A DNA stretch of 56,759 nt. It comes from Candidatus Spechtbacteria bacterium RIFCSPHIGHO2_02_FULL_43_15b. Lineage in GTDB: Bacteria > Patescibacteriota > Minisyncoccia > Spechtbacterales > HO2-43-30. The first letter of the stretch is position 1. Each line of letters starts with the position of its first letter. The notes below the pieces were generated by a model. It was given only the letters and a program-made list of their open reading frames with translations, made no database searches and was not told the origin of the DNA. The stretch covers positions 25,934 to 82,692 of the forward strand of contig MHOE01000006.1 of assembly GCA_001819985.1 (NCBI GenBank). The letters are read 5' to 3'. Below are positions 1 to 56,759 of the stretch, piece after piece. A program made the translations under genes and the position numbers.

Positions 1-1
1 A

Positions 2-184
2 GAGGAAGCAATTGGCATCGGATTCGATAAAATATCGCGAGATCCAAAAGTTATAGTTGTTATAGAATGGGCAGAGAGAATAAAAGAGATAATTTCTAAG
101 CCCTATTTTAATGTTAAATTCGAGCACATAGACAAAGATAAAAGGAAGATTACGGTAGAGGAAATAAAAAATGAAAAATACTAA
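2..184 (+). CDS. tsaE: C-terminal fragment of tRNA t6A modification ATPase TsaE (partial, runs off 5' edge)
   Basis: The open frame enters from the window edge and stops at TAA 182-184. The tail ...KVIVVIEWAERIKEII...KITVEEIKNEKY resembles the (I/V)EWxE C-terminal segment of TsaE/YjeE. Only about 60 aa are visible. It overlaps the polA start by 14 nt. Confidence 0.4.
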   Translation, partial: EEAIGIGFDKISRDPKVIVVIEWAERIKEIISKPYFNVKFEHIDKDKRKITVEEIKNEKY

Positions 185-2429: not shown

Positions 2430-2510
2430 TTAAGATTATGCACTGGCGGTAGCGGCAATTTAGTTATTTTAATGTTAGAATGTTAAATATACGATTCTTC
2501 ACAAAAACAC

Positions 2511-3401
2511 ATGAGAATTAAAAAAACAAAAGTTCTATTAGTCGAAGATGAAGCTGGACTGCTCGAAATATTGGCGAACAAATTAAAACAAGAGGGCTAC
2601 GATGTGGATACGGCGCAAGACGGAGAAGAAGGAATTAAGAAAATGACACAACACGCGCCAGATATTGTTTTACTCGATATAATAATGCCTAAAGTCGGAG
2701 GGTTCGAAGTATTGGAAACCATGCATACCGATAAAGCGCTGAGTAAAATACCCGTTATTATAATTTCCAATTCGGGCCAACCCGTAGAAATAGAAAGAGC
2801 GAAAGCTCTCGGGGCGAAAGATTACTTAGTTAAGGCGGAGTTTGACCCTCAAGAAGTGCTTCAGAAAATGGAAGCAGTTCTTAGGGGTGGCGTGACGGGC
2901 AGAGGGGATGCTGTAGATGAATTAGCCCGCACCATACAGGAATCAGAAAAAGGCGAAAAAAATTTTTCAAAAGAAAACAAGGATAAAAGCGGGAAGGACG
3001 AAAAAATTTCGAGTAGCAAATCTTTAGCGGGCAGGAAAATATTAGTTGTTGAAGATGACCAGTTTCTTAGAGATCTTATCGTGAGAAAATTAGAGGACGA
3101 ATCCTTTGAAGTGCTTCAGGCGGTTGACGGTGAGGAGGGTTTAAGAGACGCAAAGGAGAATAAACCCGATATGGTGTTATTGGACTTAATATTACCCGGA
3201 ATAGACGGTTTTGAAGTTTTAAGAAATATGAAATCAGATAAAGAAATATCCGATATTCCTATTATAATACTCTCAAACCTTGGCCAAAGAGACGATATAG
3301 AGCAGGGGCTTAAACTTGGCGCTAGGGATTACCTTATTAAAGCACACTTTACGCCAGGGGAAATCGTTGCTAGAGTAAAAGAGATTTTAAGTAAAGAATG
3401 A
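2511..3401 (+). CDS. Response regulator with two tandem receiver (REC) domains and no output domain
   Basis: Two CheY-like repeats are present (KVLLVEDE...DIVLLDIIMP...YLVKA and KILVVEDD...DMVLLDLILP...YLIKA). They are joined by a K/E/S-rich linker. Confidence 0.8.
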   Translation: MRIKKTKVLLVEDEAGLLEILANKLKQEGYDVDTAQDGEEGIKKMTQHAPDIVLLDIIMPKVGGFEVLETMHTDKALSKIPVIIISNSGQPVEIERAKALGAKDYLVKAEFDPQEVLQKMEAVLRGGVTGRGDAVDELARTIQESEKGEKNFSKENKDKSGKDEKISSSKSLAGRKILVVEDDQFLRDLIVRKLEDESFEVLQAVDGEEGLRDAKENKPDMVLLDLILPGIDGFEVLRNMKSDKEISDIPIIILSNLGQRDDIEQGLKLGARDYLIKAHFTPGEIVARVKEILSKE

Positions 3402-4510
3402 AGCCATATATAAATAAGCAAAACATTTTAGTATTTGCGTGTTTTTGTTTACTGTTTATAACGGGCGTGTTTTATTTTGCATTTACAAACGATTTTGGAT
3501 ATAGAACCACTACTATCATTGGCAGGGATAGTACAGATACAGAAAAAGAACAGCTCGAATCAAACGAAAATTCAGGTAAAAGCTTCAAATCCCCCCCAAA
3601 TACCATAAGTGGTACGGAATGTGAAAATTATAACAGGCGGCCTTTTGCCGTTATGATAGCTGAAGATGCGGAAGCTCGCGACCTTTCAGGCATTGGATCC
3701 GCGGATCTTGTTATAGAAATGCCGGTAGTGACAGGTTCTATAACAAGAATGATGGCATTATTCGTATGCGAAAATGTAAAAGAGATAGGGTCGGTTAGAT
3801 CCGCTCGTCATGATTTTGTACCTCTCGCTTTGGGTTATGACGCGATATTGGCTCATTGGGGGGGGTCGAATATGGCGCTGGCAGAAACGGATAAAATAGA
3901 CAATCTCGACGCGATGGTAAATTACTACGATAGTTTCTATAGAAAAAAATGGATTCCGGCGCCGCACAACGGTTTTACGGACACGGGAAGATTAACTAAT
4001 GCCGCTAGTAAATTGGGGTATAGATTAGTTAGTGAATTTAGCGGATACAAATTTTTAGAAAATCCAGAATCTCTCCAGTCCAGCAATGTTTCTGATGGCG
4101 GGGAAGTATCAAATCCCAAGCAAGCGCAAAACAAAAAGTTAAGCATAGGGTACCGTTCGCCTTATGATGTTATGTACGATTATGACTATAAAACCAATTC
4201 GTATTTAAGATGGCGCGATGGGAAGAAAGAGATTGACACTCTGACTGGTAGCCAAGTAGAAGTGAAAAATATTGCAGTTATGCGCGCGGCATCGAGGCAG
4301 ATCGGGGATGGTTATAACGATGTTGATGTTATTGGCAATGGGAAAGCCGTTGTTTACAGGAACGGCGATGAAATAGAAGGTACTTGGGTAAAAAAGACGG
4401 ACACCGATGTCTTAAAATTTTATAATAAAGAGGGCATGGAAGTAGAATTTGTTAAAGGTAAGATTTGGGTAAATGTAGCGGAATTGAACACGCGCGTCGT
4501 TTACGAGTAG
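3398..4510 (+). CDS. DUF3048 (YerB-like) membrane-anchored protein
   Basis: There is an N-terminal hydrophobic anchor. The segment RPFAVMIAEDAEARDLSGIGSADLVIEMPVVTGSITRMMALF matches my recollection of the DUF3048 N-domain signature. The ATGA start overlaps the stop of the upstream gene. Confidence 0.6.
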   Translation: MKPYINKQNILVFACFCLLFITGVFYFAFTNDFGYRTTTIIGRDSTDTEKEQLESNENSGKSFKSPPNTISGTECENYNRRPFAVMIAEDAEARDLSGIGSADLVIEMPVVTGSITRMMALFVCENVKEIGSVRSARHDFVPLALGYDAILAHWGGSNMALAETDKIDNLDAMVNYYDSFYRKKWIPAPHNGFTDTGRLTNAASKLGYRLVSEFSGYKFLENPESLQSSNVSDGGEVSNPKQAQNKKLSIGYRSPYDVMYDYDYKTNSYLRWRDGKKEIDTLTGSQVEVKNIAVMRAASRQIGDGYNDVDVIGNGKAVVYRNGDEIEGTWVKKTDTDVLKFYNKEGMEVEFVKGKIWVNVAELNTRVVYE

Positions 4511-4519
4511 TTTTAACTT

Positions 4520-5476
4520 ATGATAATTTTTCTCTATGGCCACGACACTTATAGGGCCGGACAAAAAGCAAAAGAGATTATAGCCGGGTACGAAGATATT
4601 CATAAAAGCGGCCTCAACCTGCGCTTTTTTGATTTCGAAGACAGCGCTTTCGGGGATTTCAAAAATGCGGCTGAATCAGTTTCTATGTTTAACGAAAAAA
4701 AACTTTTGGTTCTTAAAAACAGTTTTTGTTCAAAAGATTTTGTAAACGATTTTTTGTCATGGGGCGGGAAAGAAGGCATTGCGGTTTCAAAAGACATAAT
4801 TTGTTTATTTATGGAAGTAACAGCCGATAAGTCGAGCGACATATTCAAATGGCTTGCGGGTAACGCAAGGTGTCAGGAATTTAACGAGCTTAAAGGCACA
4901 AAATTAAAAAATTGGAGCGTGGATTTCGCGAAGCAAAAAGGAATCTTAATGGAATCTATCGTGGCGGAAAGATTGATTTTTTATACGGGCGGAGATTTAT
5001 ACGCCCTTCACAACGAAATTTCAAAAATAGCGTCTTATGTCTTAGAGAGGTCCGGATCTAAAACGGCGACAGAAGGCGACTTGAATATTTTAATAAAACC
5101 AAAGCTCGAGACCCACATATTTTCTCTCGTGGATTCGTTTGTGGAAAAAGACAAAAAGAAGGCGTTAAGGCTTTTGCACGGCCATATAGAGGCGGGGGAT
5201 AATGAGATGATGATTTTTTCAATGATTCAAACGCAATTTAGAAACATCGCCGCGATAAAAGATTTAATCGACGCGGGAGAAAAGGATTCTTACAGGATTT
5301 CAAAAATTTTAGGAATTCATCCCTATGTTGCGAAAAAAGGTATGTGGCAATCCGCGAGGATGGATAAACGGGAAATAAAAAATATCTACAAAAAATTTGT
5401 AGATACGGAGATAAAAGTAAAGACAAGTGAACTAAGTTTGAAATCGGGAATGGAGAATTTGTTGTTTGAGAGCTAG
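4520..5476 (+). CDS. holA: DNA polymerase III delta subunit
   Basis: 318 aa. It has the typical HolA N-terminus (MIIFLYGHDTYR...), an overall clamp-loader delta layout and a helical C-terminal domain. Confidence 0.7.
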   Translation: MIIFLYGHDTYRAGQKAKEIIAGYEDIHKSGLNLRFFDFEDSAFGDFKNAAESVSMFNEKKLLVLKNSFCSKDFVNDFLSWGGKEGIAVSKDIICLFMEVTADKSSDIFKWLAGNARCQEFNELKGTKLKNWSVDFAKQKGILMESIVAERLIFYTGGDLYALHNEISKIASYVLERSGSKTATEGDLNILIKPKLETHIFSLVDSFVEKDKKKALRLLHGHIEAGDNEMMIFSMIQTQFRNIAAIKDLIDAGEKDSYRISKILGIHPYVAKKGMWQSARMDKREIKNIYKKFVDTEIKVKTSELSLKSGMENLLFES

Positions 5477-5766
5477 TTTTTTGGAGTGTTTTTTGCCTCC
5501 GGAGCGGGTTTTGGATTAAGTTTTTTGGCGACTACGGATTTCCTTCTCGACGCGGTATTCTTTTTTATAACTCCGACCTTAGCGGCTTTATCCACCGCTT
5601 TATAAAATTTCGGCAGAATTTTTTTTAACTCTTCCTGATTTTTTTCTTTCGCGAAAGCAAGCGCTCTTTTCATAAGGGTTTTTATTTTGTCTTTATATTT
5701 GAGATTTCTTTTCTTTCTCGTCTTGCTTTGGCGCAGGGCCTTTTTAGCTGATTGCGTGATGGGCAT
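5473..5766 (-). CDS. rpsT: 30S ribosomal protein S20
   Basis: The MPITQSAKKALRQSKTRKKRN... N-terminus is a basic helical protein typical of bS20. Confidence 0.9.
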   Translation of the reverse strand: MPITQSAKKALRQSKTRKKRNLKYKDKIKTLMKRALAFAKEKNQEELKKILPKFYKAVDKAAKVGVIKKNTASRRKSVVAKKLNPKPAPEAKNTPKN

Positions 5767-5902
5767 ATATTTGTTTTTAGCAGAAAGTCCGATTTAAGTC
5801 AATGATTTGTGCATGTGGAAATATAGGAAACAGCATTTTACGGCTAATTACAACTAATATTGGCTTTTTAGAGCCATTTTTTGTGGTGAACTAAATTTTC
5901 CG

Positions 5903-5931
5903 TTGACATAATATCTTTTTTTTGGTATGAT
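5903..5931 (+). promoter_or_regulatory. Near-consensus sigma70-type promoter (TTGACA, 17-nt spacer, TATGAT, with TG at the extended -10 position)
   Basis: -35 TTGACA lies at 5903-5908. The spacer is 5909-5925 (17 nt). -10 TATGAT lies at 5926-5931 and is preceded by TGg. It sits about 29 nt upstream of the small ORF at 5960. Confidence 0.5.
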
Positions 5932-5959
5932 AGAGATATAAAATGTAAGGAGGGGAAAA

Positions 5960-6097
5960 ATGCGGATAGTTATTTTTTTCTCCACGCTGATTTTTTTGGT
6001 AGGCGTATGGCTGGCGACACCGGATACGGTGTACGCCCCCGCCACAGAAGATGACGCGGCGGTCACCGCCGCGGTAATGCTCGTCAACGACGAGTGA
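5960..6097 (+). CDS. 45-aa small hydrophobic/secreted peptide (hypothetical), below the ORF-track size cutoff
   Basis: ATG 5960 is preceded by SD AAGGAGG (5947-5953, 6-nt spacing). Translation: MRIVIFFSTLIFLVGVWLATPDTVYAPATEDDAAVTAAVMLVNDE. It has its own promoter upstream and a terminator hairpin directly after the TGA stop. Confidence 0.45.
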   Translation: MRIVIFFSTLIFLVGVWLATPDTVYAPATEDDAAVTAAVMLVNDE

Positions 6098-6128
6098 AAC
6101 CCCTGTTAATATACGGGGGTTTTGTTTT
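6097..6128 (+). terminator. Rho-independent terminator
   Basis: The stem ACCCCTG/CGGGGGT (with one G-U pair) encloses an 8-nt loop and is followed by TTTTGTTTT. It lies between the small ORF and the convergent truB stop. Confidence 0.5.
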
Positions 6129-6807
6129 ATTTCGCTATAAGTTCTTCTAAGTTTACGGCATCTTTCAAGACATACTTTCCGATTTTGGTGCGTATTAGCT
6201 TTTCCAAATATGCGCCACAGCCGTTTCGTTGGCGTGAGGATTTGGATGGCGCGGCAAGCTGTTTTCCAATGTCTCGTGCGAGCGCGCGAATATAAGTGCC
6301 GGAAGAACAATTTATTTTAAGCTGAAGCATGGGCCATTTATAATTTAGAACCTCAATGCCGTAAATCTTTATTTTTCTCGGCGCCAGTTTTACCTCCTTG
6401 CCGTCTCTTGCAAGTTCATACGCTTTCCTGCCGTGAATTTTAAGCGCGGAATATGCCGGAGGAACCTGATTGATTTCTCCGATAAAGTTTTTCAATATTC
6501 TCCGTATCAACACGGGTCGAACCTGTGTGGCGTTGGTAGGGACTATACTGCCAGTCAAATCCCCAGTATCACTTTCAGCCCCAAGCCGTAAGGTGGCTAT
6601 GTATTCTTTATCTAATTTTATAAATTCGACCTGCCTTTTTGTCGCTTCTCTGCCGACAAGTACTATCAAAAGCCCCTCGGCAAAAGGGTCTAGTGTTCCC
6701 GCGTGTCCCACTCGTTTTTCACCCGTGATTTTACGGACTTGGTCAACAATATCGTGCGAGGTTGGGCCGGAGGGTTTGAGAATAAGCAGGATATTATTTT
6801 TCACCAT
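6127..6807 (-). CDS. truB: tRNA pseudouridine-55 synthase
   Basis: It carries the GHAGTLDPFAEGLL catalytic Asp motif and the TruB family layout. Confidence 0.9.
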   Translation of the reverse strand: MVKNNILLILKPSGPTSHDIVDQVRKITGEKRVGHAGTLDPFAEGLLIVLVGREATKRQVEFIKLDKEYIATLRLGAESDTGDLTGSIVPTNATQVRPVLIRRILKNFIGEINQVPPAYSALKIHGRKAYELARDGKEVKLAPRKIKIYGIEVLNYKWPMLQLKINCSSGTYIRALARDIGKQLAAPSKSSRQRNGCGAYLEKLIRTKIGKYVLKDAVNLEELIAK

Positions 6808-8848
6808 AAAAATTTTTAATCTTATCTCTAAATTCAGCGGCTTTCTCGAAATCTAGATTTTTAGCCGCTTTTTTCATTTCTTTTTCAAGGTATTTTAATG
6901 AAGCGCTGTCAAGCTCTGTGAATTGACCCTTGCCTCTGGATACTAATTTGTAATTCGTCTCAGTTACGATATCCAGTTCTTCGAGCGGCTTCTCGATGGT
7001 TTTGGGCGTAATGCCGCGGTCCTTGTTGTATTTTTCTTGTATTTTTCTTCGCCTTTCAGTTTCTTTTATAGCCCGTTTCATCGATTCGGTAATATTGTCA
7101 GCGTACATTATGACTCGTCCTTCAATATGCCTCGCGGCTCGTCCCATTGTCTGAATTAGAGTGGTGTCGTTCCGCAAAAAACCCTCCTTGTCGGCATCTA
7201 ATATCGCGACTAGGGCGACTTCGGGCAAATCCAGCCCCTCTCTTAAAAGATTTATTCCAACAACAACATCATACTTTCCAGAACGCAAATCGTGAAGAAT
7301 TTTTGGGCGTTCGAGCGTATGAATTTCAGAATGAAGATAATACGCTTTGATACCCCGCTCCACAAAATATTCGGCTATGTCCTCAGCGAGGCGCTTCGTT
7401 ATAGTAGTCACAAGCACTCGCTGATTTTTAAGCACTCCTTTTTGTATCTCCTTAACTAAATCACCCATCTGATTTTTAGACGGCCGTATTTCTATTTGAG
7501 GATCAAGTAATCCCGTGGGCCTCACCAGTTGCTCGATTATGTGAGATTCCCGTCTTCCCACATGAGATTTGGAGATTTCACATTCATATTGCGCGGGGGT
7601 GGCGGAGACATAAATAGTTTGGCCGATTCTTTGCTGAAATTCATCGAAAGTGAGAGGTCTGTTGTCTAGGGCAGATGGGAGTCTGAAGCCGTAATCAACA
7701 AGCGCTTGTTTTCGAGATCTATCCCCAAAGTACATTCCTCTTATTTGAGGGATTGTCATATGAGATTCGTCTATAAAGGTTAAAAATCCTAAATCGTCGG
7801 CGGCGTATTGGGCGCGGTGGTCACGGTTTTCGGGAGACCCGAATTTTGATGAATTAGCGGCGTGGCCGAAATAATCAAGAAGCGTGTACGGCGCTTCGCC
7901 CGGATATCTTGCATCAAGATGGCGGGAGTAGTTTTCAATTCCATGACAAAAACCGGTCTGTTCTAAAAGTTCCAGGTCGAAATTCGTTCTCTGTTCGAGT
8001 CTTTGCGCTTCTAAAAGTTTTTTTTGCGAATTAAGCTGTTTGATATGCTGATGAAGTTCGTTTCTTATATTAGCTATAGCGATTTTTTGAGTATCGTCAG
8101 GCGTAGCCCAAAAGGATGCGGGGAATATAAGAACTGTGTTTACCGGATAGGATTTGGAGCCAAGCGACGGAACACTAAATCGTAAGTCCTGAATGCCAGA
8201 ACTGTTTAATTCAATACTTATAATTTTAGTTCCTGTAGTCGGGAAAATTTCTACAGTGCTTGTTCTCGACCGAAACTGGCCGGGCCTTAAATCTATCTGA
8301 TTTCTAGAATATCCGAGTAGCACCAAGTGATTCAGAAGTTCTTTTCTTGCTATGTTTTGTCCTTGAGATAACGCCAAGCTCAAGTTTTCATAGTTTGCGG
8401 GAGAGCCAATATTGTATATGCAGGATACGGAAGCTACTATTATAACATCACGCCTAGTTAGCAAATCTTGGGTCGCCGCGTGTCTCATTTGGTCTATCTT
8501 TTCGTTTATTTTAGCGTCCTTTTCTATATATGTGTCGGATTGAGGAATATACGCCTCCGGTTGATAGTAGTCATAGTAGCTTACGAAATAATGAACCGCG
8601 TTTTCCGGGAAGAATTCCTTAAACTCTTTATACAACTGCCAAGCTAGAGTTTTATTGTGCGAAATAACTAGGGCGGGGTGGTTTATCTTTTCTATAACAT
8701 TCGCCATAGTGAAGGTTTTTCCCGATCCGGTTACGCCCAAAAGCACCTGGTTTTTTGCGCCGGATAAAACGCCCTCGGACAATTTTTGTACGGCATCTGG
8801 TTGGTCGCCCGCAGGTACAAAGTTAGATTTTAGTTTGAATCTTGACAT
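6794..8848 (-). CDS. uvrB: Excinuclease ABC subunit B
   Basis: It has Walker A GVTGSGKTFT, helicase motifs, and the C-terminal UvrB motif LDFEKAAEFRDKI. Confidence 0.95.
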   Translation of the reverse strand: MSRFKLKSNFVPAGDQPDAVQKLSEGVLSGAKNQVLLGVTGSGKTFTMANVIEKINHPALVISHNKTLAWQLYKEFKEFFPENAVHYFVSYYDYYQPEAYIPQSDTYIEKDAKINEKIDQMRHAATQDLLTRRDVIIVASVSCIYNIGSPANYENLSLALSQGQNIARKELLNHLVLLGYSRNQIDLRPGQFRSRTSTVEIFPTTGTKIISIELNSSGIQDLRFSVPSLGSKSYPVNTVLIFPASFWATPDDTQKIAIANIRNELHQHIKQLNSQKKLLEAQRLEQRTNFDLELLEQTGFCHGIENYSRHLDARYPGEAPYTLLDYFGHAANSSKFGSPENRDHRAQYAADDLGFLTFIDESHMTIPQIRGMYFGDRSRKQALVDYGFRLPSALDNRPLTFDEFQQRIGQTIYVSATPAQYECEISKSHVGRRESHIIEQLVRPTGLLDPQIEIRPSKNQMGDLVKEIQKGVLKNQRVLVTTITKRLAEDIAEYFVERGIKAYYLHSEIHTLERPKILHDLRSGKYDVVVGINLLREGLDLPEVALVAILDADKEGFLRNDTTLIQTMGRAARHIEGRVIMYADNITESMKRAIKETERRRKIQEKYNKDRGITPKTIEKPLEELDIVTETNYKLVSRGKGQFTELDSASLKYLEKEMKKAAKNLDFEKAAEFRDKIKNFYGEK

Positions 8849-47353: not shown

Positions 47354-49936
47354 GTGAAGAAAAAAATAAAGAAAAATATCAGGAACCTCAAACCTAGCGG
47401 ATTTTTTTTACTGGCGATTGGATTAATATGCGTGTCGATAACGCTGTTTTATGTTTTAGAGATAAAATCTATCGGCGCGGCGGCAGGGTCGCAACTTACG
47501 CAGTTTTCAGTTCAAAACAGCAGTATAAACGCGTGGGTGATGCGGGGACAGATATGCACAGCGACAGCCACGCTTAAGGATCTGTTTGGAAATACGATAC
47601 CAAACGAAGGGCCTGTAGAATTGCAGTTTAAAGTCGGTTCTAGCTGGTTCTTTGAGGGGGCTAAAGACAATCTGACAGATGCGTCCGGATTTGCGCAAAT
47701 TCCGTGGAATGTGGATTCGGGAAATATTAATGCGGATTATAGAGTGCGGTTCCCCGGGTCGGTCAACTGGAATCCGAGCCAAAGCAATGTCATAGCTATC
47801 AGCATTGATGACACCTTGCCGACAAATGTCGCGATTTCCCATACCGGAGGGCAAAATCCGCCTCCGGGTAATGTGACCATCAGCTTAACCGCTCAAGATC
47901 AGCAATCAGGAATTCGATCGCTTTTAATACTTTCGAGCGTTAACGGAAATCCTTTTAATGGAATTCAAACTTGTTCATTCAGTTCTCCGTTTCCGACAAC
48001 CACGCAAACTTGTAATGCAACAAAAACATACAATAACGGCGATCATGTGGAATACTATGGCGTAGTATTTTCCGGCGCGGATTGTAGTTCTACGGGCGTA
48101 AGCACTTTAGTGGGAGTCGCTGTGCCAGCGGCTAATATTTTTAATGTAGGCGGTACCGCAATTACTCTAAACCTTAAGGGTTATCAGGGAAGCTCTTTTC
48201 CTTCCTGCTCCTCTTCTTCGTTTAGTGATCCAGTTAGCGCGAGTTCGGGCCAAGATATAAATTTTTGCTATAGCTATACGGGAGTAACTCCCGGAGTAAG
48301 CTCTACTATTAGAATAGATTGCAATAACGATTCTACATACGACAATAGCGTCACCCACACGCCATCATCGGCGAGCGGTAGTACGCAGGTTTGGGCACCT
48401 GTTTTTTGCAGTGGACAATTTACTTCGGGAAATTATATTGTGGGGGGTAAAATCGAGCAGGGAGCAAATTCCGCGCAGGACACAGTTAATATAAATGTAT
48501 CGGCGCCGGCATCTTTTAACCTCGCGCTTAGCGGAAATCCTATATCCAGCATATCGCCCGGGACTGCCGTAAGTTTTACCTTCAATGTCACGGGCGCATC
48601 GGCCGGAGCTTTAGCGTACGAGATAGATTGCGATTACACCGGAACTTTTTCCGCGAATACTACAGTAAGTTCTCCAAACAATCCTCATACGCTCAACTCA
48701 TTATGTGGAGGCGTGTATAGCACGGGAGGCGCGACATATACCGCGGCGGGTCGCGCGAGCCAGGGGTCGAATAGCGATACGGAGTTTGTGACAATAACCA
48801 CAAGCGGCTCGACGCCTAAACCGACGGCAAATTTTCAGATAACAAACGCGTCGAATAATCCTATAACATCCGTGACTGTGGGAACTCCGGCAAAATTTTG
48901 GGATTCGTCTACGGCTTCTTCCGGGCAAACCTTGATTTCCTGGATTTGGAATTTCGGTTCGGGCGCTTCCCCGAGTTCAGCGAGTGGCGCGGGACCTCAT
49001 AATGTGACTTACGGCAATCCCGGGACAAAAACAATAACGCTTACGGTATCCCAAAGTAATGGCGCGGCCGATACGATATCAAAAATATTAACCGTTTCAG
49101 CCGGATCAACCTTTTCAATAACGGCGACGCCGGTTCCCGCGTCCGGAGCCGCGGGGATGAATGTAGCATTTAATCTTCAGGCATTCAATGAAACCGGCCC
49201 GATAAATTTTTCCGCGGATTGTAACGCAGATGGCACAATAAACAATATCCTATCAAACACTTCAGGCCCATGGCCTAAATCGTGGGTTGGCCCATGCAAC
49301 TCATTCTATACATCCGCGGGCATATATGCAGGAATTATGCGCGCTATCGACATTAATAGCGGCGATACAGCCCAAGCGCCAATAACGGTTGTGGTAACCG
49401 GAGTTTCCGCGGCGGATTTTTCGTTTTCCGTAAACGATTTTACGGTTAGCTTTAACGGTTCGGCTTCAGGCGGTTCGCCGCCATATACCGAATGGTGCTG
49501 GAATTTCGGAGACGGTACGCCTGTTCAATGCGGGATAACTTCGAATCCTTCTCATGTGTATAATACCGGAGGCGGCGCGGGAACATTCACAGTAACGCTA
49601 ACGGTTAAAGATTCAAATAATGTGACGAGCGCGCCTGTTTCAAAGAGCGTTTCTGTGGGACCTCCTATTTCATTGTTCAGCATTTCTTTCCTAAATCCAA
49701 TAAACGCGACAAATATAAGCGAGCTTGTTGATGCGATTATAAATTTCTTCGCTTTAATAGTTATTCCTATAGGGGTCGGGCTTATAGTATATGCGGCGTT
49801 GAAGTACATAATATCAGGGGCGCTTCCCGAAGAACGGCAAAAATCCATAAAAACCATACAATACGCGTTAATGGGTATAGTCGTGGTGCTTATGGCGAAA
49901 GTCGCGATAAACATTCTCGAATTTTTGTTATCGTAA
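47354..49936 (+). CDS. Large surface protein: N-terminal TM/signal, Ig-like and PKD repeats, C-terminal two-helix pilin-like module
   Basis: It uses a GTG start. PKD signatures are WIWNFGSGAS...TITLTV and WCWNFGDGTP...TVTLTVKD. The repeats are rich in S, T, G and N. The C-terminus is NISELVDAIINFFALIVIPIGVGLIVYAALKYIISG...QYALMGIVVVLMA. Confidence 0.6.
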   Translation: MKKKIKKNIRNLKPSGFFLLAIGLICVSITLFYVLEIKSIGAAAGSQLTQFSVQNSSINAWVMRGQICTATATLKDLFGNTIPNEGPVELQFKVGSSWFFEGAKDNLTDASGFAQIPWNVDSGNINADYRVRFPGSVNWNPSQSNVIAISIDDTLPTNVAISHTGGQNPPPGNVTISLTAQDQQSGIRSLLILSSVNGNPFNGIQTCSFSSPFPTTTQTCNATKTYNNGDHVEYYGVVFSGADCSSTGVSTLVGVAVPAANIFNVGGTAITLNLKGYQGSSFPSCSSSSFSDPVSASSGQDINFCYSYTGVTPGVSSTIRIDCNNDSTYDNSVTHTPSSASGSTQVWAPVFCSGQFTSGNYIVGGKIEQGANSAQDTVNINVSAPASFNLALSGNPISSISPGTAVSFTFNVTGASAGALAYEIDCDYTGTFSANTTVSSPNNPHTLNSLCGGVYSTGGATYTAAGRASQGSNSDTEFVTITTSGSTPKPTANFQITNASNNPITSVTVGTPAKFWDSSTASSGQTLISWIWNFGSGASPSSASGAGPHNVTYGNPGTKTITLTVSQSNGAADTISKILTVSAGSTFSITATPVPASGAAGMNVAFNLQAFNETGPINFSADCNADGTINNILSNTSGPWPKSWVGPCNSFYTSAGIYAGIMRAIDINSGDTAQAPITVVVTGVSAADFSFSVNDFTVSFNGSASGGSPPYTEWCWNFGDGTPVQCGITSNPSHVYNTGGGAGTFTVTLTVKDSNNVTSAPVSKSVSVGPPISLFSISFLNPINATNISELVDAIINFFALIVIPIGVGLIVYAALKYIISGALPEERQKSIKTIQYALMGIVVVLMAKVAINILEFLLS

Positions 49937-49969
49937 TTTTGGGCCTGAATTTATACTTATTTTTATTTT

Positions 49970-51715
49970 ATGAGCTTTAGGATATCAAATATTGCAATAT
50001 TCATTTTTATTGTCGCCGGAAGTTTTTTAGTGTCTGGAGGTTTTGTTTTTGCGGCATCTCCGCAGTATGCCTGCAATACAACAGAATACACATCATGCGC
50101 GAAGACCACAATATTAAGTTCAATCAACCAGTGTTCGGCAAGCAATATCGCGAGCGCGTGCGCGCTTAATCCAAGTTCCGGCACTTTTTTTCAAACAAAT
50201 TGCGTTGATTGTTCCGTTGCCGGATCCGAATTCGGCTGTTATCCGTTTATAACTCCGCCAATTTGCAAGGATATAACAAAGCCAAGCGTTACGGTTGATT
50301 ACACTCAAAATTCGGAGGATACCGTGACAATTACATCAGCCGCTTTTGATTCGGGAAGCGGCATGGGCGAGATCACGGTGTTCATAGACCTCAACAGGAA
50401 CGATTTTTTCGCAGACCCGGGAGAAACTAAAAAATGCTTTAATGTCAATTCGTGCAGTTTTCCGATAAACGGACTAAGCGCGGGGCAAAGTTACCAATAT
50501 TACGCGACAGCCAAAGATAAAAGCGATAACGGATCGAATACCCTTCCGGTGAAAACCTTTACAGTACAAGCTCAAGGCATAGGCTTTACCGTTGGTCCGA
50601 TAAAACAGAAATCCGTAACAGAGGGCGTTGCCACGAATTTTACGGCAGATGTTGTGGTTGCCGGAAGTTTTGATGTTGTTTCTTGCGTTTTGGTTGTAGA
50701 TACCGCTACTGCGGGATCTATGGTAAATCAAAGCGCGGGTGGGGCGTTTTTTTCTTCGGCTGGCGGGCAATGCAGTCCGGGTAGCACATGCATAGCGAAA
50801 TACGCGACAGGATACACATTTATTGCCGGAAGCGCGGGACAGCATACTGTTTCAGCTCGTTGCGCGGATTCCAATAGCAATATTGACGAGGATCCGACAA
50901 CCGTCATGGTTCAAGAAGCGGCTGTATGTGATCCGAGCCCGTTCGATCCCGTGTTTGGAGTGGGTTGCGATGATTCGCCCGGAGGATGTTGCAATGGAAC
51001 ATCTTGCGTTGACGACGAGAGTTGCTTTAGTGGATTTTGTGACAGTATATGCAAAAATCCGCTAAAAGCAAATGGAGAGGCCTGTTCATCGGGAAATGAA
51101 TGTCAAAGCGGCGTTTGTTCAAGTAATATCTGTAGCGCCCCTCCTTTAGGATTTGCTCCGGAAGTCGATTTTTTATGTTCATTCGCGGGCGATGGAGTAA
51201 CGGCGACATTTATTCCGAAATGGAACGGCGGAGGTTCTCCCGTGTACTACGGCTGGAAGTTTGGAGACGGGGCTTCTTTACCAAATGCTCCGATGACCAA
51301 TCCTCCTAACCCCGATCCTGTAACTCATAGATACGAGCATTCGGATAGATATACAGTAACTCTGACAGCCATAGATATCGCGGGCAGGAGCGGCCAAGCC
51401 AGTCATGTATGCGACTCTCTTTTTGAAGACAATACGCCAAATCCTTCTTTGTCCGTGTTTAAAAATTTATTGCCGCCTCTTGTCATAACAAATATTTCAG
51501 ATCTGCTTAACACTTTCATCACTTTTATATTGTTTATCGCGACTCCCATTCTGGCCCTCCTTATAATTTATTCCGGCGTAACGCTTATGGTTAGCGGGTC
51601 ATCTCCACAGAACAAGCTCAACGCAATGCGTATTTTGCAGTACGGAATCATAGGATACGGTATAATCCTTCTCTCAAAAGTTCTTCTCGGAGTTATAACG
51701 GGGATACTGTTTTAG
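49970..51715 (+). CDS. Large surface protein: signal peptide, Ig-like region, Cys-rich module, PKD domain, C-terminal two-helix pilin-like module
   Basis: The signal peptide ends ...GGFVFAAS. The PKD signature is YYGWKFGDGAS...YTVTLTAID. The C-terminus NISDLLNTFITFILFIATPILALLIIYSGVTLMVSG...QYGIIGYGIILLS is paralogous to the previous gene. Confidence 0.6.
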   Translation: MSFRISNIAIFIFIVAGSFLVSGGFVFAASPQYACNTTEYTSCAKTTILSSINQCSASNIASACALNPSSGTFFQTNCVDCSVAGSEFGCYPFITPPICKDITKPSVTVDYTQNSEDTVTITSAAFDSGSGMGEITVFIDLNRNDFFADPGETKKCFNVNSCSFPINGLSAGQSYQYYATAKDKSDNGSNTLPVKTFTVQAQGIGFTVGPIKQKSVTEGVATNFTADVVVAGSFDVVSCVLVVDTATAGSMVNQSAGGAFFSSAGGQCSPGSTCIAKYATGYTFIAGSAGQHTVSARCADSNSNIDEDPTTVMVQEAAVCDPSPFDPVFGVGCDDSPGGCCNGTSCVDDESCFSGFCDSICKNPLKANGEACSSGNECQSGVCSSNICSAPPLGFAPEVDFLCSFAGDGVTATFIPKWNGGGSPVYYGWKFGDGASLPNAPMTNPPNPDPVTHRYEHSDRYTVTLTAIDIAGRSGQASHVCDSLFEDNTPNPSLSVFKNLLPPLVITNISDLLNTFITFILFIATPILALLIIYSGVTLMVSGSSPQNKLNAMRILQYGIIGYGIILLSKVLLGVITGILF

Positions 51716-51753
51716 CGGCCAGGACGCTATAGCTTGAATTCAAAATAAACAAA

Positions 51754-51774
51754 ATAAGCCGCTTTGCGGCTTAT
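51754..51774. terminator. Bidirectional terminator hairpin between convergent genes
   Basis: The 9-bp stem ATAAGCCGC-ttt-GCGGCTTAT is flanked by an A-run and a T-run. The right arm overlaps the stop codon of the minus-strand gene. Confidence 0.6.
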
Positions 51775-53006
51775 TTGTAATCTATAATATACTTTTTAGT
51801 TTCCTCGATCAGTTTTTCCAGCCAATCGAGCGGCGGTTTTCCGGTGCCATGCGTTTCCCCATAAGTTTTTATGTAATCTCTGACAAGAAACAGATGTTCG
51901 ATGCGCCAATCTACAAATGCTTGGATAAGCGAGTTATGCGCTCGTAAAAGCGCGCTATTGTCTCCATGCTCGAGGACATACCGTCTTATATTTGAGTCGG
52001 AGATAATGTCGAGCAACTCTTGGTGTTTGGCCGACATATGCAGACGCATTCTGGGAAAATATGCGTCAGTCGAATGCGTTATGTCCATTATCATAAGACG
52101 GAAATGCCGCGAAGGGCTTTGTCCGCCGGTCTCCCCTAGAATTTCCATAGGTTTTCCTTCGAGTTCCGCAACATTCTCGAATATGATTTTTTTTGGTAAT
52201 GTATAGAACAGACGCACTTGGTCAAAATAGGTTTTATAGTCGCATTTTTCGCGCATTCTTTGGAGTATATCCACGGCCCTGTTTTCTGTTCGCGCGGCAG
52301 TTTGAAGGAGCGGAGTAATCATTTCTGGCGCGGGGTCGTGTTTAGCGAGGAAGTAGGCCTTTAGCAAGGCCTCTATGCCCGTTGCCACAGTAGCTTCTAT
52401 CACCTGGTGTATCCAAACAAACCATTTTTCATCAACCGTTCCGGTGAAAGAATATGGCATTTCAACATTGGCTAGAGTGAGGGGCTTTAGAGGATTTTTC
52501 TTCTTCCAGTTCCATAGTGCGTATAATGAATAGGACATACTGGGCTGAATTCCCGTGGCTTTGCTAAGTTCCCACATTGGTATCGCGATGGCGGAGCATA
52601 ATGTCTTTGGCTCATCATCTTTCATCAGTTCAGACACATTTTTGTAGGGGTATTTTTCCTTAAGATACGCGTGCATGATCATTGCCAGCCGCAACATAAA
52701 AGCGTGTTGAAAGTTTCTCGACAGATTTCCGTAATCAAGGGAAGTCGGGGATGGCGGATTTGCCAGGTTATCATTTACAAAATGTTCAACTTCACGGTGA
52801 GTTATTATCCATACTATATTCCTGGATAGGGTTTCGAGATTATAAAAATAACTAGCGTATCTGTTAGAAGAAACGGAATTTTCCCGTAATTCTTGAAGCA
52901 AATCAGTAGGTGGAGACAGGAATCCTTCGGTACCGGACACGAAATGATTCCGCATAAGTTGGCGCGTTTGTTCGCCAGCTTTCCTTGCGAGTTCGGCGTT
53001 TTTCAT
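51771..53006 (-). CDS. Indoleamine 2,3-dioxygenase (IDO) family heme dioxygenase
   Basis: Several blocks match my recollection of human IDO1: ALWNWKKKNPLKPLTLANV..SF (IDO1 LANWKKKDPNKPLTYENM..SF), GETGGQSP (GGSAGQSS), MRLHMSAKHQELL (MRRYMPPAHRNFL), WRIEHLFLV (RSYHLQIV, proximal His) and GTGKPPLDWLEK (GTGGTDLMNFLK). The start is set at the second Met, with GGAGG 4 nt upstream. Confidence 0.8.
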   Translation of the reverse strand: MKNAELARKAGEQTRQLMRNHFVSGTEGFLSPPTDLLQELRENSVSSNRYASYFYNLETLSRNIVWIITHREVEHFVNDNLANPPSPTSLDYGNLSRNFQHAFMLRLAMIMHAYLKEKYPYKNVSELMKDDEPKTLCSAIAIPMWELSKATGIQPSMSYSLYALWNWKKKNPLKPLTLANVEMPYSFTGTVDEKWFVWIHQVIEATVATGIEALLKAYFLAKHDPAPEMITPLLQTAARTENRAVDILQRMREKCDYKTYFDQVRLFYTLPKKIIFENVAELEGKPMEILGETGGQSPSRHFRLMIMDITHSTDAYFPRMRLHMSAKHQELLDIISDSNIRRYVLEHGDNSALLRAHNSLIQAFVDWRIEHLFLVRDYIKTYGETHGTGKPPLDWLEKLIEETKKYIIDYK

Positions 53007-53092
53007 TTGACCTCCAGATTGGATTTTCAAAGTGCAAATTTTTGTACTTTATCATACAACATTTTTTCCAATAAGGCAATCTCGAGTGAAAT

Positions 53093-53119
53093 AAAAACTC
53101 CTATCGTGATTGGAGTTTT
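53093..53119 (-). terminator. Rho-independent terminator
   Basis: The hairpin AAAACTCC/GGAGTTTT has a 10-nt loop. On the minus strand it is followed by TTTTTATTT. It overlaps the stop of the 75-aa ORF. Confidence 0.55.
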
Positions 53120-53345
53120 ACAGATAGGAGCTGGATTTTTTTAGAATAATTTCCGCAAGTTTCCATTCAAGATCCGCGGCCAGTTTTTTAGCGGCCGGAT
53201 CCCATTCGGTTGTGGTGAACTTTAATCTTTCCGCCATAGTCAGCTTTCTGAATATGCGTGGGAAATTTTCTTCAAGATGCCTAATTATACGAGGCAGTAT
53301 GTAATTTGCGACATCGTTTAAGTCGTCGCTGGATAGGTTCGTCAT
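53118..53345 (-). CDS. Hypothetical small protein (75 aa)
   Basis: The ORF is packed between the ald-like gene and the terminator, with a 12-nt gap to the upstream gene. It is predicted helical. I recognised no family. Confidence 0.4.
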   Translation of the reverse strand: MTNLSSDDLNDVANYILPRIIRHLEENFPRIFRKLTMAERLKFTTTEWDPAAKKLAADLEWKLAEIILKKSSSYL

Positions 53346-53357
53346 TTAACCCCCCTT

Positions 53358-54500
53358 TTAAATGAGCTGTTCTAATGGAGAGTATTTAGCCCCTATGCTA
53401 TCGGCAAGTCCTTTGTGGGTTATCTTTCCGTTATACACATTTACGCCCGCGGCAAGCGCGGAGTTTTCACGAACCGCCCTTAGAAATCCATTTGCGGATA
53501 GTTCGGCAATGTACGAGAATGTTTCCGCTGTTAGAGCGTTAGTTGATTCGCGAGGCACAATTCCGGGCATATTAGGCACGCAATAATGCGTGACTCCGTA
53601 TTTTTCAAAAGTACGCACCGCTATGGAAGTGGGCATGGATGTTTCAAAGCACCCGCCTTGGTCTATGGATATGTCAACGACTACCGATCCGGGAGTCATT
53701 GACTGGATCATTTTCTTAGTAATCAGTTTCTGCTGGAGTTGTCCTGGAATATGGGTAGTGCCTATTAGAAGATCAATTCTTGGAAGTATCGAAGATATAG
53801 CCCGCGGGTTATACTGGATGCATTGAATTTTCGTGTAGTCGAAATGAGGGTGAAATATTTTTCTGAAGTTTTCGAGTTTTTCGGGATTCGAGTCAACCGC
53901 GAATAGGTTAGCCGGAACACCTTCGGGATTAAGGGGGTTTAGAATTTGTTTGGCGGCGGCAAGTCCAGCATTTCCAAGGCCAAGTATCATCACATTCGCG
54001 TGCGAGCCGAGGAGAATGCCTTTATTTTCCATGAGAATTCTTTTGCCTTCTTCACATCCCACTCTGCCCGCTATATTTGACATACTTTTTAGTATGGGGG
54101 TTAGGCCGTCCAATCCCACTGTTTCATAAGCGATTGCGGTAACTCCGCTTCGGATCAGAGCGTTTACAAGATTTCTGTTAGGCGCGAGATGAAAAAAGCA
54201 AAATATAAAAAGACCGCTTCTGAAGTATCGGAATTCTTCCGGCAACGGCTCCTTTACTTTAACTATCAGATCTGCTTCCGTCCAAACTTTATGGGCGGCG
54301 GCTATCTTAGCTCCGGAATCAATGTATTGCTTGTCTTTAAACCCGCTTCCTTGTCCGGCAGATTTTTCCACTAGAACGCTAAAACCCTTTCTTGAAAGTT
54401 CCGCCGCTCCTTTTTTTGACGGCTTCATTCCCACCCGCTTTTCACCCTGCTTTATTTCTTTAGGAACGCCTATTATTGTTTGCGTCGTTTGTTTTGTCAT
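53358..54500 (-). CDS. ald: Alanine dehydrogenase / AlaDH-PNT family NAD-dependent dehydrogenase
   Basis: It has IGVPKEIKQGEKRV, KVKEP, FFHLAP, AYETV, SMSNIAGR, LGLGNAG, VVDISIDQGGCFETS and HYCVPNMPG. The start is set at MTKQT, with GGAGG 4 nt upstream. Confidence 0.72.
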   Translation of the reverse strand: MTKQTTQTIIGVPKEIKQGEKRVGMKPSKKGAAELSRKGFSVLVEKSAGQGSGFKDKQYIDSGAKIAAAHKVWTEADLIVKVKEPLPEEFRYFRSGLFIFCFFHLAPNRNLVNALIRSGVTAIAYETVGLDGLTPILKSMSNIAGRVGCEEGKRILMENKGILLGSHANVMILGLGNAGLAAAKQILNPLNPEGVPANLFAVDSNPEKLENFRKIFHPHFDYTKIQCIQYNPRAISSILPRIDLLIGTTHIPGQLQQKLITKKMIQSMTPGSVVVDISIDQGGCFETSMPTSIAVRTFEKYGVTHYCVPNMPGIVPRESTNALTAETFSYIAELSANGFLRAVRENSALAAGVNVYNGKITHKGLADSIGAKYSPLEQLI

Positions 54501-54663
54501 ATATCCTCCATTATACACACCGTTCGAATAGATTTTCAAGGTGCGCGACTTTTAACTTGATAATAAAGCATAACTGCTAAAGCTACGCAATAGTAGTAAG
54601 GCATTGTTTAAGTTATATTTTTATGGTACTACGGAAAAATCAGTACATTAAAAAGGTGGCAGT

Positions 54664-55596
54664 ATGAGTATGTTGCGGAGGATTTTCGATGAAGTAGGAT
54701 GCCGTTTGCTTGGACGGATGTTTGTTGGCGGTCGTAGCATAGAGGATGTGTTAAAAACAGGGGAGCGTCTAAAAAAGGAAGGTTACAAAGTGACTTATAA
54801 CCTTCTTGGCGAGCATCAGGGCGACTCCGTTTTCGTGGATTACGCGTTGCGTACGACACTCGAACTTATCGGAAAAATGAGCGAAAGAAATCAAGGCAAT
54901 GTCGCTATAAAGCCGAGTTTATATGGACTTCAAATTTCTCCGGATAGTTTTCTGGCAAATGCAAAATTTATTGTTGAACGCGCGAAAAGTCAAGGAATAT
55001 CCGTAGAGTTTGACGCGGAACAACAGAGTTTTACAAATGATACCTTTAAGGTTTTTAATTTTTTTGCGTCAAGGATGGAATATAGGGGTTTTGTGGCGCA
55101 GTGCGTTCAGGCGCACGCGAGAAACATAATGAGCGTTATGACAAAATACGGATTGTGGAACAAGCGTATCCGCGTGGTAAAAGGCGCGGGTGTTTATAAA
55201 GAAAACGCGGATCGAGTTATCGGAGACGAGAAAGATATTTTGGTAAGGTACAAACAAATAGCGATCCTAAATCGCGACAATTGGCAAGCGCCCCTTATAG
55301 CGACGGTAAGAGACAGAACGCTCGCGTATGAAATGGCGAAAATTTTCAGAAATCCCAATACTTTTGAATTCGAGATGCTTTACGGGCCGATTGGGAAGCG
55401 TCTTTCAAGGGAACTTTTAGAAAAAGGTTATTCGGTGCGCATATACATTCCGTTTACTGATATTTGGTGCAAAGACGCGTGGATAGAATACGGCATCCGA
55501 AGAAGCGCTATGATGAGGAGGTTGGCATTAGGGGAAGTTAAAAGAATAATCGGCAAGGTATTTTTTAGGCATCACGATTCTTTCGAAAACAATTAA
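54664..55596 (+). CDS. Proline dehydrogenase (monofunctional PutB-like)
   Basis: It has YNLLGEH, VAIKPSLYG, RVVKGAGVYKE, EMLYGP and RIYIPF...WIEYGIRR. This follows the PRODH TIM-barrel pattern. Confidence 0.72.
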   Translation: MSMLRRIFDEVGCRLLGRMFVGGRSIEDVLKTGERLKKEGYKVTYNLLGEHQGDSVFVDYALRTTLELIGKMSERNQGNVAIKPSLYGLQISPDSFLANAKFIVERAKSQGISVEFDAEQQSFTNDTFKVFNFFASRMEYRGFVAQCVQAHARNIMSVMTKYGLWNKRIRVVKGAGVYKENADRVIGDEKDILVRYKQIAILNRDNWQAPLIATVRDRTLAYEMAKIFRNPNTFEFEMLYGPIGKRLSRELLEKGYSVRIYIPFTDIWCKDAWIEYGIRRSAMMRRLALGEVKRIIGKVFFRHHDSFENN

Positions 55597-55635
55597 CAGC
55601 ATACGGAAATCAAATACAAAGGAGGAAGACGAAAT

Positions 55636-56759
55636 ATGACAAGTATAGTAGTACGGTTACGCAATTATATCGGAGGGCATTGGGTTGATGGCGAGGGAGA
55701 TTGGTTTTCCAGCGTAAATCCAACAGTCCGAACATCAGAACTTGGCAGGGGCAACGCCGCTTCTAGCGAGCAGGTTAAAGCGGCGATTCTGGCGGCGTCA
55801 GGAGCTTATGATAATTGGCGCAATATGCCTCGTCCAAAAAAAGAAGAATATTTCTATCGCCTCCTATTAAAGTTTGGGGACCCCGAAGATCCAAGCAATG
55901 TGCGAATAAACGCGCTTGCGCGTCTCATTACAAACGAATGCGGAAAAACTTTGAACGAAGCGCGGGCGGATGTTGTGGAAGGAATACACATGATTCGGCT
56001 TTGCGCCGGTATGGGTCGCCGTCCTATCGGCGATGTGATTCCGTCAGAATTTCCGGAAAAGTTAATTTATACAGAACGAGACCCGAGGGGAGTCACAGCG
56101 GTTATATCGCCGTGGAATTTTCCGTTTGCTATTCCGTGGTGGATGATGGGCCCGGCTCTTATGATGGGTAATACCGTTGTTTTGAAGCCGGCGGAACAAA
56201 CCGCGGTCGTCGGTCAAAAAATAGTAGAGATGTGCGAGGAAGTCGGATTTCCTGCGGGAGTCGTGAATTTAGTTCACGGGATGGCAGAAACAGGCAAAAC
56301 TTTAGTGTCCGACGAAAGAGTGCGGCTAGTTTTGTTTACTGGTTCGTACGAAGTGGGCCGAAGCATAAAGCAGGTTTGCGCCGAAGATTCGGAGCTCGAC
56401 AAAATGGTGGTCGCGGAAACAGGTTCAAAAAGTGCGTTAATCGTCCTTCCGGACGCGGATTTGCTTCTGGCCGCGGAGGCGACTTCGAAAAGCGCATTTA
56501 AGACAACTGGCCAGCGGTGCGTATCGGCCGGAAGAGTGTTTGTTCCTGAAAGATTGTTATCACATTTTTGCGATCTTGTTATGGATTGGGTTGCGCAAAA
56601 TGTGCGTACCGGCAATCCCCTTAACGAGTCCACATTTATGGGTCCGCTGATTGACAAAGAGGGGGCGGAGAAAGTTTTGCGGTATAACGATATGGTAAGG
56701 GAAGCTGATTCTATAGGCGAAAGAAATGTGTCTATACTGATGGAAGCGAAAGCGGATAT
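55636..56759 (+). CDS. Aldehyde dehydrogenase, probable 1-pyrroline-5-carboxylate dehydrogenase (partial, runs off 3' edge)
   Basis: This frame is not in the ORF track because it has no stop in the window. SD AAAGGAGGA lies upstream. Read from the DNA: MTSIVVRLRNYIGGHWVDG..., VISPWNFPFAIPWWMMGPALMMGNTVVLKPAEQT, AETGSKSALIV and TGQRCVSAGRVFV (catalytic Cys). Confidence 0.85.
   Translation, partial: MTSIVVRLRNYIGGHWVDGEGDWFSSVNPTVRTSELGRGNAASSEQVKAAILAASGAYDNWRNMPRPKKEEYFYRLLLKFGDPEDPSNVRINALARLITNECGKTLNEARADVVEGIHMIRLCAGMGRRPIGDVIPSEFPEKLIYTERDPRGVTAVISPWNFPFAIPWWMMGPALMMGNTVVLKPAEQTAVVGQKIVEMCEEVGFPAGVVNLVHGMAETGKTLVSDERVRLVLFTGSYEVGRSIKQVCAEDSELDKMVVAETGSKSALIVLPDADLLLAAEATSKSAFKTTGQRCVSAGRVFVPERLLSHFCDLVMDWVAQNVRTGNPLNESTFMGPLIDKEGAEKVLRYNDMVREADSIGERNVSILMEAKAD

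Follow-up and report, generated by a model that had tools for sequence, protein, structure and literature searches.

The window analysed here is the whole 56,759-nucleotide stretch of contig MHOE01000006.1 (assembly GCA_001819985.1, positions 25,934 to 82,692) from Candidatus Spechtbacteria bacterium RIFCSPHIGHO2_02_FULL_43_15b, and the gene in question is a minus-strand gene for a protein of the indoleamine 2,3-dioxygenase (IDO) family. On the same strand it is preceded by a small open reading frame (ORF) for an orphan protein and, before that, by an L-alanine dehydrogenase (AlaDH) gene, with proline dehydrogenase (ProDH) and aldehyde dehydrogenase (ALDH) genes running divergently beyond (coordinates in Table 1). 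The source genome (G000) comprises 939 kb in 34 contigs at an estimated completeness of 100%, which bears out the original prediction, made from the DNA letters alone, that this is a reduced genome; genomes of the same Spechtbacteria family measure ~0.6-1.0 Mb. The longest frame for the IDO gene (51771..53030, minus strand) opens with a TTG codon. The public gene call (P0002, 411 aa) starts instead at the ATG proposed originally, a choice with which the aligned N-termini of 35 homologues agree. A GGAGG Shine-Dalgarno sequence is read just before this ATG, confirming that the gene has a ribosome-binding signal of its own.

Membership of the IDO family was examined by profile and sequence searches. 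The protein matched the Pfam IDO profile (PF01231) over profile positions 65-358 of 412 with an E-value of 1.4e-45 and 156.2 bits, well above the cut-off of 26, and a six-frame search of its own genome recovered the gene at 155.7 bits. A phmmer search against the PDB returned IDO1 and IDO2 chains only (E 1e-20 and 2.6e-20), so the match to the family is far beyond chance. The three blocks first picked out for their resemblance to human IDO1 are all found in the phmmer alignment with IDO1, where NWKKKNPLKPLT stands opposite NWKKKDPNKPLT, MRLHMSAKHQELL opposite MRRYMPPAHRNFL, and WRIEHLFLV opposite LRSYHLQIV, with RIEH over RSYH. The PrnB (PF08933) and TDO (PF03301) profiles gave no match, PF01231 being the sole Pfam family at E <= 0.01, and neither a TDO nor a PrnB chain was among the PDB sequence matches; the suggestion of a PrnB-type enzyme is unsupported.

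An AlphaFold2 model built from a 36-sequence alignment (pLDDT 89.5, pTM 0.90) predicts that the two-domain, mostly helical IDO fold is in place. IDO1 or IDO2 made up all 50 PDB matches listed by Foldseek, at TM-scores of 0.75-0.80 (normalised by query length) over ~405 columns. The human IDO1 sequence used for residue numbering has the expected letters at Y126, F163, S167, R231, H346 and T379 and is consistent with the phmmer alignment to the PDB chains. Corresponding residues, IDO1 first, are Y126-Y159, F163-F196, S167-H200, F226/F227-Y260/F261, R231-R265, G261-G291, Q266-Q296, R343-R368, H346-H371 and T379-T388, and Y159, F196, R265, G291, Q296, R368, H371 and T388 are the consensus residues among 167 homologues. 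The codon of the proximal haem ligand, residue 371 in RIEHLFL, lies exactly where the original prediction had placed it, and the residue is not lost in alignment; its column is invariant in 56/56 sequences of the subclade that holds the query (type B, described below) and in 110/110 other IDO homologues. The position of Arg265, whose IDO1 counterpart binds the carboxylate of tryptophan, is likewise invariant in type B and conserved in 108/110 of the others. The G-T-G at residues 387-389 is invariant in a smaller IDO alignment (A4) and nearly so in the 167-sequence alignment. Judging by these alignments, the proximal histidine and the substrate-binding arginine, phenylalanine, tyrosine and threonine are all present, and the gene is a genuine, intact and probably active IDO.

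Set beside human IDO1 and IDO2 (PDB 2D0T, 5WMU, 6CXU, 9UYY), the bacterial protein belongs to the same Pfam family, has the same predicted two-domain helical fold (TM 0.80) and shares the proximal histidine, Arg231, Phe163, Tyr126, Thr379 and the G-x-x-G-x-Q distal loop. It differs in being only 24% identical to human IDO1, in having a JK loop ~12-16 residues shorter ahead of the G-T-G, and in coming from a bacterium that makes no haem. It also carries a histidine, not a serine, at the distal-pocket position of IDO1 Ser167. TDO likewise has a histidine at this position. The same state is found in the engineered S167H variant of IDO1 in 6CXU. As a special trait of the query this histidine was rejected, since it occurs in 56/56 type B sequences and in 84/110 other homologues and is usual outside the IDO1-like clade.

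Among 1.84 billion representative proteins, only 1202 clusters matched the IDO protein at E < 1e-3, and 27 of them reached E < 1e-30. In phylogenetic trees the query groups in a clade, here called type B, that has 100% support and is set apart by a stem of ~1 substitution per site; human IDO1 lies in another clade and most other bacterial homologues in a third (type A). Type B amounts to only ~23 clusters at 50% identity in that collection, with a mean column identity of ~61% and the motifs DEKWFVWIHQ, GETGGQ and HGTGKPPL. Its members come mostly from unnamed metagenome contigs; the named sources are Spechtbacteria, Sungbacteria, Saccharibacteria, other Patescibacteria, Melainabacteria, Methylomirabilota and one metagenome-assembled genome (MAG) labelled Kofleriaceae. 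IDOs have been described in bacteria before (Yuasa, Ushigoe and Ball 2011, Gene 485:22, as cited in PMC4191572) and, as that article presents them, are likewise stand-alone and sporadic; the query differs from them in belonging to a separate, fully supported subclade of uncultured bacteria. One close relative of the query is already annotated as an IDO in a Patescibacteria genome, and full-text literature searches for IDO or kynurenine together with Patescibacteria, Parcubacteria or Candidate Phyla Radiation (CPR) returned nothing on the type B enzyme, one paper mentioning a kynurenine 3-monooxygenase in CPR MAGs. The query adds a new IDO to a known enzyme family, from a subclade that is uncharacterised.

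IDO is rare in the phylum and yet a fixed trait of this Spechtbacteria family. PF01231 was found in all seven family genomes, which span six genera, and the gene is intact in each; an apparently split IDO in G005 proved to be due to masked bases, not a frameshift. Outside the family it was found in none of nine genomes from the rest of the order and in two of 45 from the rest of the class (G056 and G060; together 2/54), in 0/400 evenly drawn genomes of other Patescibacteria and in 0/14 control genomes, in keeping, for bacteria of this kind, with the original remark that IDO homologues are uncommon in bacteria. This absence from 400 sampled Patescibacteria, together with nearest relatives that include Melainabacteria and Methylomirabilota sequences, could suggest that the gene is foreign, brought in as a contaminant during assembly or binning or by very recent transfer. 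The gene, however, lies within a 93-kb contig amid typical CPR genes, has a GC content of 0.439 compared with 0.427 for the window and a third-position GC (GC3) also like that of its neighbours, and occurs with the same locus and flanks in each of the seven family genomes as well as in independent metagenome contigs; six studies of groundwater or soil include metagenome runs that contain the stretch. Contaminant status is refuted by this setting, composition and recurrence, and we consider a foreign origin of this sort almost certainly wrong; an ancient transfer into the ancestor of the family is likely.

The gene order ALDH< ProDH< AlaDH> small ORF> IDO> <TatD recurs in G002, G005 and G006 and in independent metagenome contigs, and G003 has the same order with an arginase-family gene replacing the small ORF (L026, G003:C6, 7599-8612; PF00491, E 5e-56). 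Loci from Patescibacteria AH-259-L05, from an ENA metagenome contig and from Methylomirabilis had no neighbours in common with the query. AlaDH was found in 7/7 family genomes compared with 4/54 other relatives, and ProDH in 7/7 compared with 7/54. The small ORF stands directly upstream of IDO in every locus examined, whichever IDO type follows, and belongs to a set of 28 proteins, each 63-79 aa long, of which all three with a taxon name come from Spechtbacteria or Spechtbacterales. It had no Pfam match at E < 0.1; AlphaFold2 predicts a two-helix hairpin (pLDDT 84), for which no structural neighbour was found in the PDB (best E 5.7).

The original prediction held IDO to be monocistronic, set off from the upstream operon by one terminator and ending at a bidirectional one. 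In relatives 1-15 nt separate AlaDH from the small ORF, and IDO follows the small ORF after 9-11 nt in G002, G005, G006 and L041, after 122 nt in L040 and, in the window, after 111 nt. Where these gaps are short, IDO is by its arrangement the tail of an operon. Within the 111-nt spacer of the window there is a weak hairpin just past the small-ORF stop (-7.7 kcal/mol, z -2.4, 7/200 shuffles as good) that was not called by the terminator scan and is a possible partial terminator, along with a promoter-like site in a region no richer in such sites than shuffles. The separating terminator is therefore reduced to this weak hairpin and a monocistronic gene is doubtful; IDO is probably the last gene of a family-wide unit of AlaDH, small ORF and IDO rather than an independent one. 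At the other end, the hairpin overlapping the IDO stop codon is stable on both strands (-15.9 kcal/mol on the minus strand, -15.3 on the plus strand; 0/200 shuffles as good), as the bidirectional claim supposed, but a proper U-tract follows on the minus strand only. On the IDO strand this hairpin is a terminator, and it could act for the surface-protein gene on the plus strand as well.

Table 1. Features of the IDO locus in the window and corresponding features in related loci
Feature	Position	Strand	Details
IDO-family coding sequence, type B	51771..53006	-	411 aa; ATG at 53006, stop TAA 51771-51773
Shine-Dalgarno GGAGG of IDO	53011..53015	-	4 nt before ATG; read in sequence
Codon of proximal haem ligand His371 (IDO1 His346)	51894..51896	-	aligned to H346
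Codon of distal-pocket His200 (at IDO1 Ser167)	52407..52409	-	alignment
Codon of Arg265 (IDO1 Arg231, Trp carboxylate binding)	52212..52214	-	alignment
G-E-T-G-G-Q loop, residues 291-296 (IDO1 G261-Q266)	52119..52136	-	distal loop over haem; alignment
G-T-G, residues 387-389 (IDO1 G378-T379-G380)	51840..51848	-	end of JK loop, Thr contacts Trp ammonium; alignment
Hairpin overlapping IDO stop codon, between convergent genes	51752..51776	both	11 bp, GC-cored; terminator scan and folding
Promoter-like site TTGCCT-17-TATGAT	53051..53079	-	9/12; spacer before IDO
Weak hairpin followed by UUUUUAUUU	53095..53118	-	8 bp, 10-nt loop; just past small-ORF stop
Small ORF, orphan protein	53118..53345	-	75 aa; homologues at same position in G002, G005, G006
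AlaDH gene, first of AlaDH-small ORF-IDO unit	53358..54500	-	ATG at 54500, GGAGG upstream; PF05222 and PF01262
ProDH gene, divergent	54664..55596	+	PF01619, E 3.8e-19; same arrangement in relatives
ALDH gene, runs off window	55636..56757	+	PF00171, E 6e-91; best NCBIfam matches below cut-offs
Small ORFs in other loci	L023 7306-7509; L024 2557-2760; L027 9037-9243; L040 1224-1463; L041 6001-6204
IDO type B in slot	G000, G002, G004:C15
IDO type A in slot	G001, G005, G006, G004:C50
IDO type A variant in slot	G003, L040
Replaced IDO pair	L022 (G004:C15) 6277-7611 and L017 (G004:C50) 91-1376; also L023 and L027

The slot between the small ORF and the convergent TatD gene does not always hold the same enzyme. 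In the sister Spechtbacteria genomes G001, G003, G005 and G006, exactly this slot is filled by type A IDOs, which are only 24-27% identical to type B and belong to a different major clade. Two contigs of G004 have flanks that are 94% and 85% identical, with no detectable nucleotide similarity over the IDO ORF, and G002 and G006 show the same pattern of similar flanks without IDO nucleotide similarity (flank identity 73-94% across pairs). A tandem of type A and type B genes in G004 was rejected, as its contigs are alternative versions of one locus; since this MAG holds both versions on separate contigs, it is a mixture of two populations. Within type B, the G000 and G004 genes and the G002 gene lie in different subclades, with weak support for the deep forks. 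Because the IDOs are divergent while the flanks are kept, the enzyme must have been swapped in place more than once, with the partner ORF retained. This argues for a shared function of the two IDO types that is maintained by selection, and the type swap amounts to a natural experiment on functional equivalence.

At least four IDO lineages occupy this slot. A further reading of these replacements is that Spechtbacteria have a dedicated cassette made up of the small ORF and IDO, the enzyme of which would have been exchanged repeatedly in situ, in a role at the host-cell interface. We regard this as unlikely. If true, turnover of IDO in a minimal genome would point to the host interface and not to housekeeping, for example to tryptophan removal, to kynurenine released for signalling or hand-off, or to host-derived haem as an oxygen shield, and the small helical protein could be a haem-loading or regulatory partner.

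The pathway context, left open in the original prediction, has become partly clear. No formamidase or kynureninase gene lies beside IDO (none in 47354-56759), as had been noted, and a candidate for the former is found elsewhere in the genome, on contig C25. This cyclase-family protein of 208 aa (C25:2010-2636) matches PF04199 at 77.6 bits, above the cut-off, carries the HxGTHxDxPxH metal motif and matches kynurenine formamidases of known structure (4cz1, 4co9, 4cog and 4cob) with E-values from 3e-29 to 5e-24. A KynB-like gene of this kind is present in 6/7 family genomes, the seventh being 82% complete, compared with 0/54 other relatives, and this co-distribution with IDO is suggestive. On C25 itself (1-6737, locus L003) the gene adjoins one for a PpaX-like HAD phosphatase, followed further on by ORFs that resemble 6-phosphogluconate dehydrogenase, glucose-6-phosphate dehydrogenase and a sugar-phosphate isomerase, with no tryptophan-related neighbour. 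The part of the context that stayed as first noted is kynureninase: the TIGR01814 profile had no match in the source genome, in 60 relatives it gave nothing beyond one 36-bit match, and none of the seven family genomes has the enzyme. By their sequences, the four PF00266-like ORFs of the source genome appear to be NifS/IscS-like, DegT-like, GlyA and Kbl-like proteins.

Cofactor and substrate supply were considered in the same way. ALAD, which catalyses a universal step of tetrapyrrole synthesis, was found in 0/21 genomes, and a control search recovered it in 11/14 named genomes; with ALAD absent, haem must be acquired from outside. TrpA, searched as a single marker, was not found by tblastn, and the organism is apparently a tryptophan auxotroph.

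Taken together, these observations make it on balance probable that the gene encodes a catalytically competent haem-b IDO that runs a truncated branch from tryptophan to kynurenine and formate on scavenged haem, at the tail of an amino-acid-oxidising cluster. In this proposal, IDO and O2 would open the pyrrole ring of L-tryptophan, or of a close indoleamine, to give N-formylkynurenine, which the unlinked KynB-type metal-dependent arylformamidase would hydrolyse to L-kynurenine and formate, where the route would end. Haem would be drawn from the host or the environment, and tryptophan would probably be imported too. IDO would be expressed as the tail of the cluster of AlaDH, small orphan protein and IDO, next to ProDH and ALDH, and would belong to an oxygen-linked module for amino-acid catabolism by which this family differs from its relatives. 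Candidates for the pay-off are kynurenine as an export or hand-off product, local removal of tryptophan and consumption of O2. Compared with the bacterial KynA(TDO)-KynB-KynU pathway of Pseudomonas, Bacillus and Burkholderia (KynB structures 4CO9, 4COB and 4COG), both systems would pair a ring-opening dioxygenase with a cyclase-family arylformamidase, a putative one in Spechtbacteria, whereas the Spechtbacteria would use IDO in place of TDO, have their genes unlinked on different contigs and, lacking kynureninase, have no anthranilate, alanine or NAD branch.

Several observations weigh against this proposal. The match of the C25 protein to the arylformamidase model TIGR03035 (E 1.7e-43, 149 bits) is below the 223-bit equivalog cut-off, and its family also includes other hydrolases. 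The co-distribution rests on essentially one clade, near to a single evolutionary event, and the other IDO-bearing relatives, G056 and G060, are without a KynB-like gene. Formate-tetrahydrofolate ligase, a possible user of the formate, is absent from all family members (PurT-type use was not searched), and a two-step route to kynurenine yields no obvious gain in carbon, nitrogen or energy. On the side of the enzyme, no characterised or solved type B member was among the sequences retrieved, the short JK loop and a Tyr/Phe at the IDO1 L234 position could shift substrate preference, and some bacterial and fungal IDOs have poor affinity for tryptophan, according to the account of Yuasa, Ushigoe and Ball 2011 given in PMC4191572.

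The last of these points lead to a second explanation, in which the IDO-family protein is a functional haem oxygenase that has a natural substrate other than free L-tryptophan, be it D-tryptophan, tryptamine, 5-hydroxytryptophan, indole or host-released 3-substituted indoles, or that carries out peroxide-driven indole oxidation. Ancestral IDOs have been hypothesised to be broad indole oxidisers and low-efficiency IDOs are known (PMC4191572), and a different substrate would suit the deep separation of type B, its shorter JK loop, its V at F164, Y/F at L234 and G at the usual A265, and the lack of a downstream kynurenine enzyme. The invariant Arg265 and Thr388, which would hold the carboxylate and ammonium groups, argue instead for an alpha-amino-acid substrate, and the co-retained enzyme resembling kynurenine formamidase also counts against another substrate; we find this second explanation rather unlikely. 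A non-catalytic haem protein, serving in capture or storage of scavenged haem or in binding or sensing of O2 or NO, has a precedent in the IDO-like myoglobin of abalone (PMC4191572), and would fit an organism that is unable to make haem and a route without clear metabolic gain. As the full set of substrate-binding residues is conserved, not just the haem ligand, and a formamidase-like gene is co-retained, such a role seems very unlikely.

In each of the family members examined, AlaDH closely precedes IDO on one strand. This linkage would be accounted for if IDO performed the first step of a complete route from tryptophan to anthranilate and alanine, the alanine then being oxidised by the AlaDH of the unit. 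This idea was dropped and is judged highly improbable: no kynureninase was found in the seven family genomes, and no candidate is among the fold-type-I pyridoxal phosphate ORFs of the source genome. Moreover, the sister-family genome G007 has the order TatD> <AlaDH ProDH>, with AlaDH abutting TatD and nothing between them, which indicates that the small ORF-IDO pair was inserted there in the ancestor of the family. The linkage of IDO to AlaDH thus looks like that of an insertion site, positional rather than biochemical.

The favoured reading of a haem-scavenging, kynurenine-forming IDO matters because the enzyme needs O2 and haem, and CPR bacteria or Patescibacteria are usually pictured as haem-less anaerobic fermenters. 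An intact IDO with a matching formamidase-like gene and without ALAD would be evidence at the genome level that these organisms scavenge cofactors and carry out oxygen-dependent chemistry on amino acids. Genes that use oxygen, among them genes of tryptophan metabolism, have been reported in groundwater CPR, where type B IDO was not described (PMC12577380), and the Spechtbacteria IDO fits the oxic adaptations reported there. The interest of the locus is moderate and lies in its haem-less CPR setting, its conserved orphan partner and the replacement of its enzyme in situ, and the type B IDO is an easily testable enzyme from an uncharacterised subclade.

Some observations concern the flanking enzymes themselves. 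The AlaDH protein matches TIGR00518 at 334 bits, below the cut-off of 392, and PDB AlaDH chains at E 7e-83; in the aligned blocks, its Arg, Lys and His fall at what we take to be the catalytic positions of AlaDH. AlaDHs of the family match the Pfam profile AlaDh_PNT_C only from profile position 27-29, at 131-183 bits, and those of relatives without the IDO cassette from position 1, at 177-230 bits; by this comparison the family's NAD-binding domain diverges at its start. ALDH is a candidate partner of ProDH, of the glutamate-semialdehyde type. ProDH is a flavoenzyme that needs an electron acceptor, and here it is found in a CPR organism expected to have no respiratory chain.

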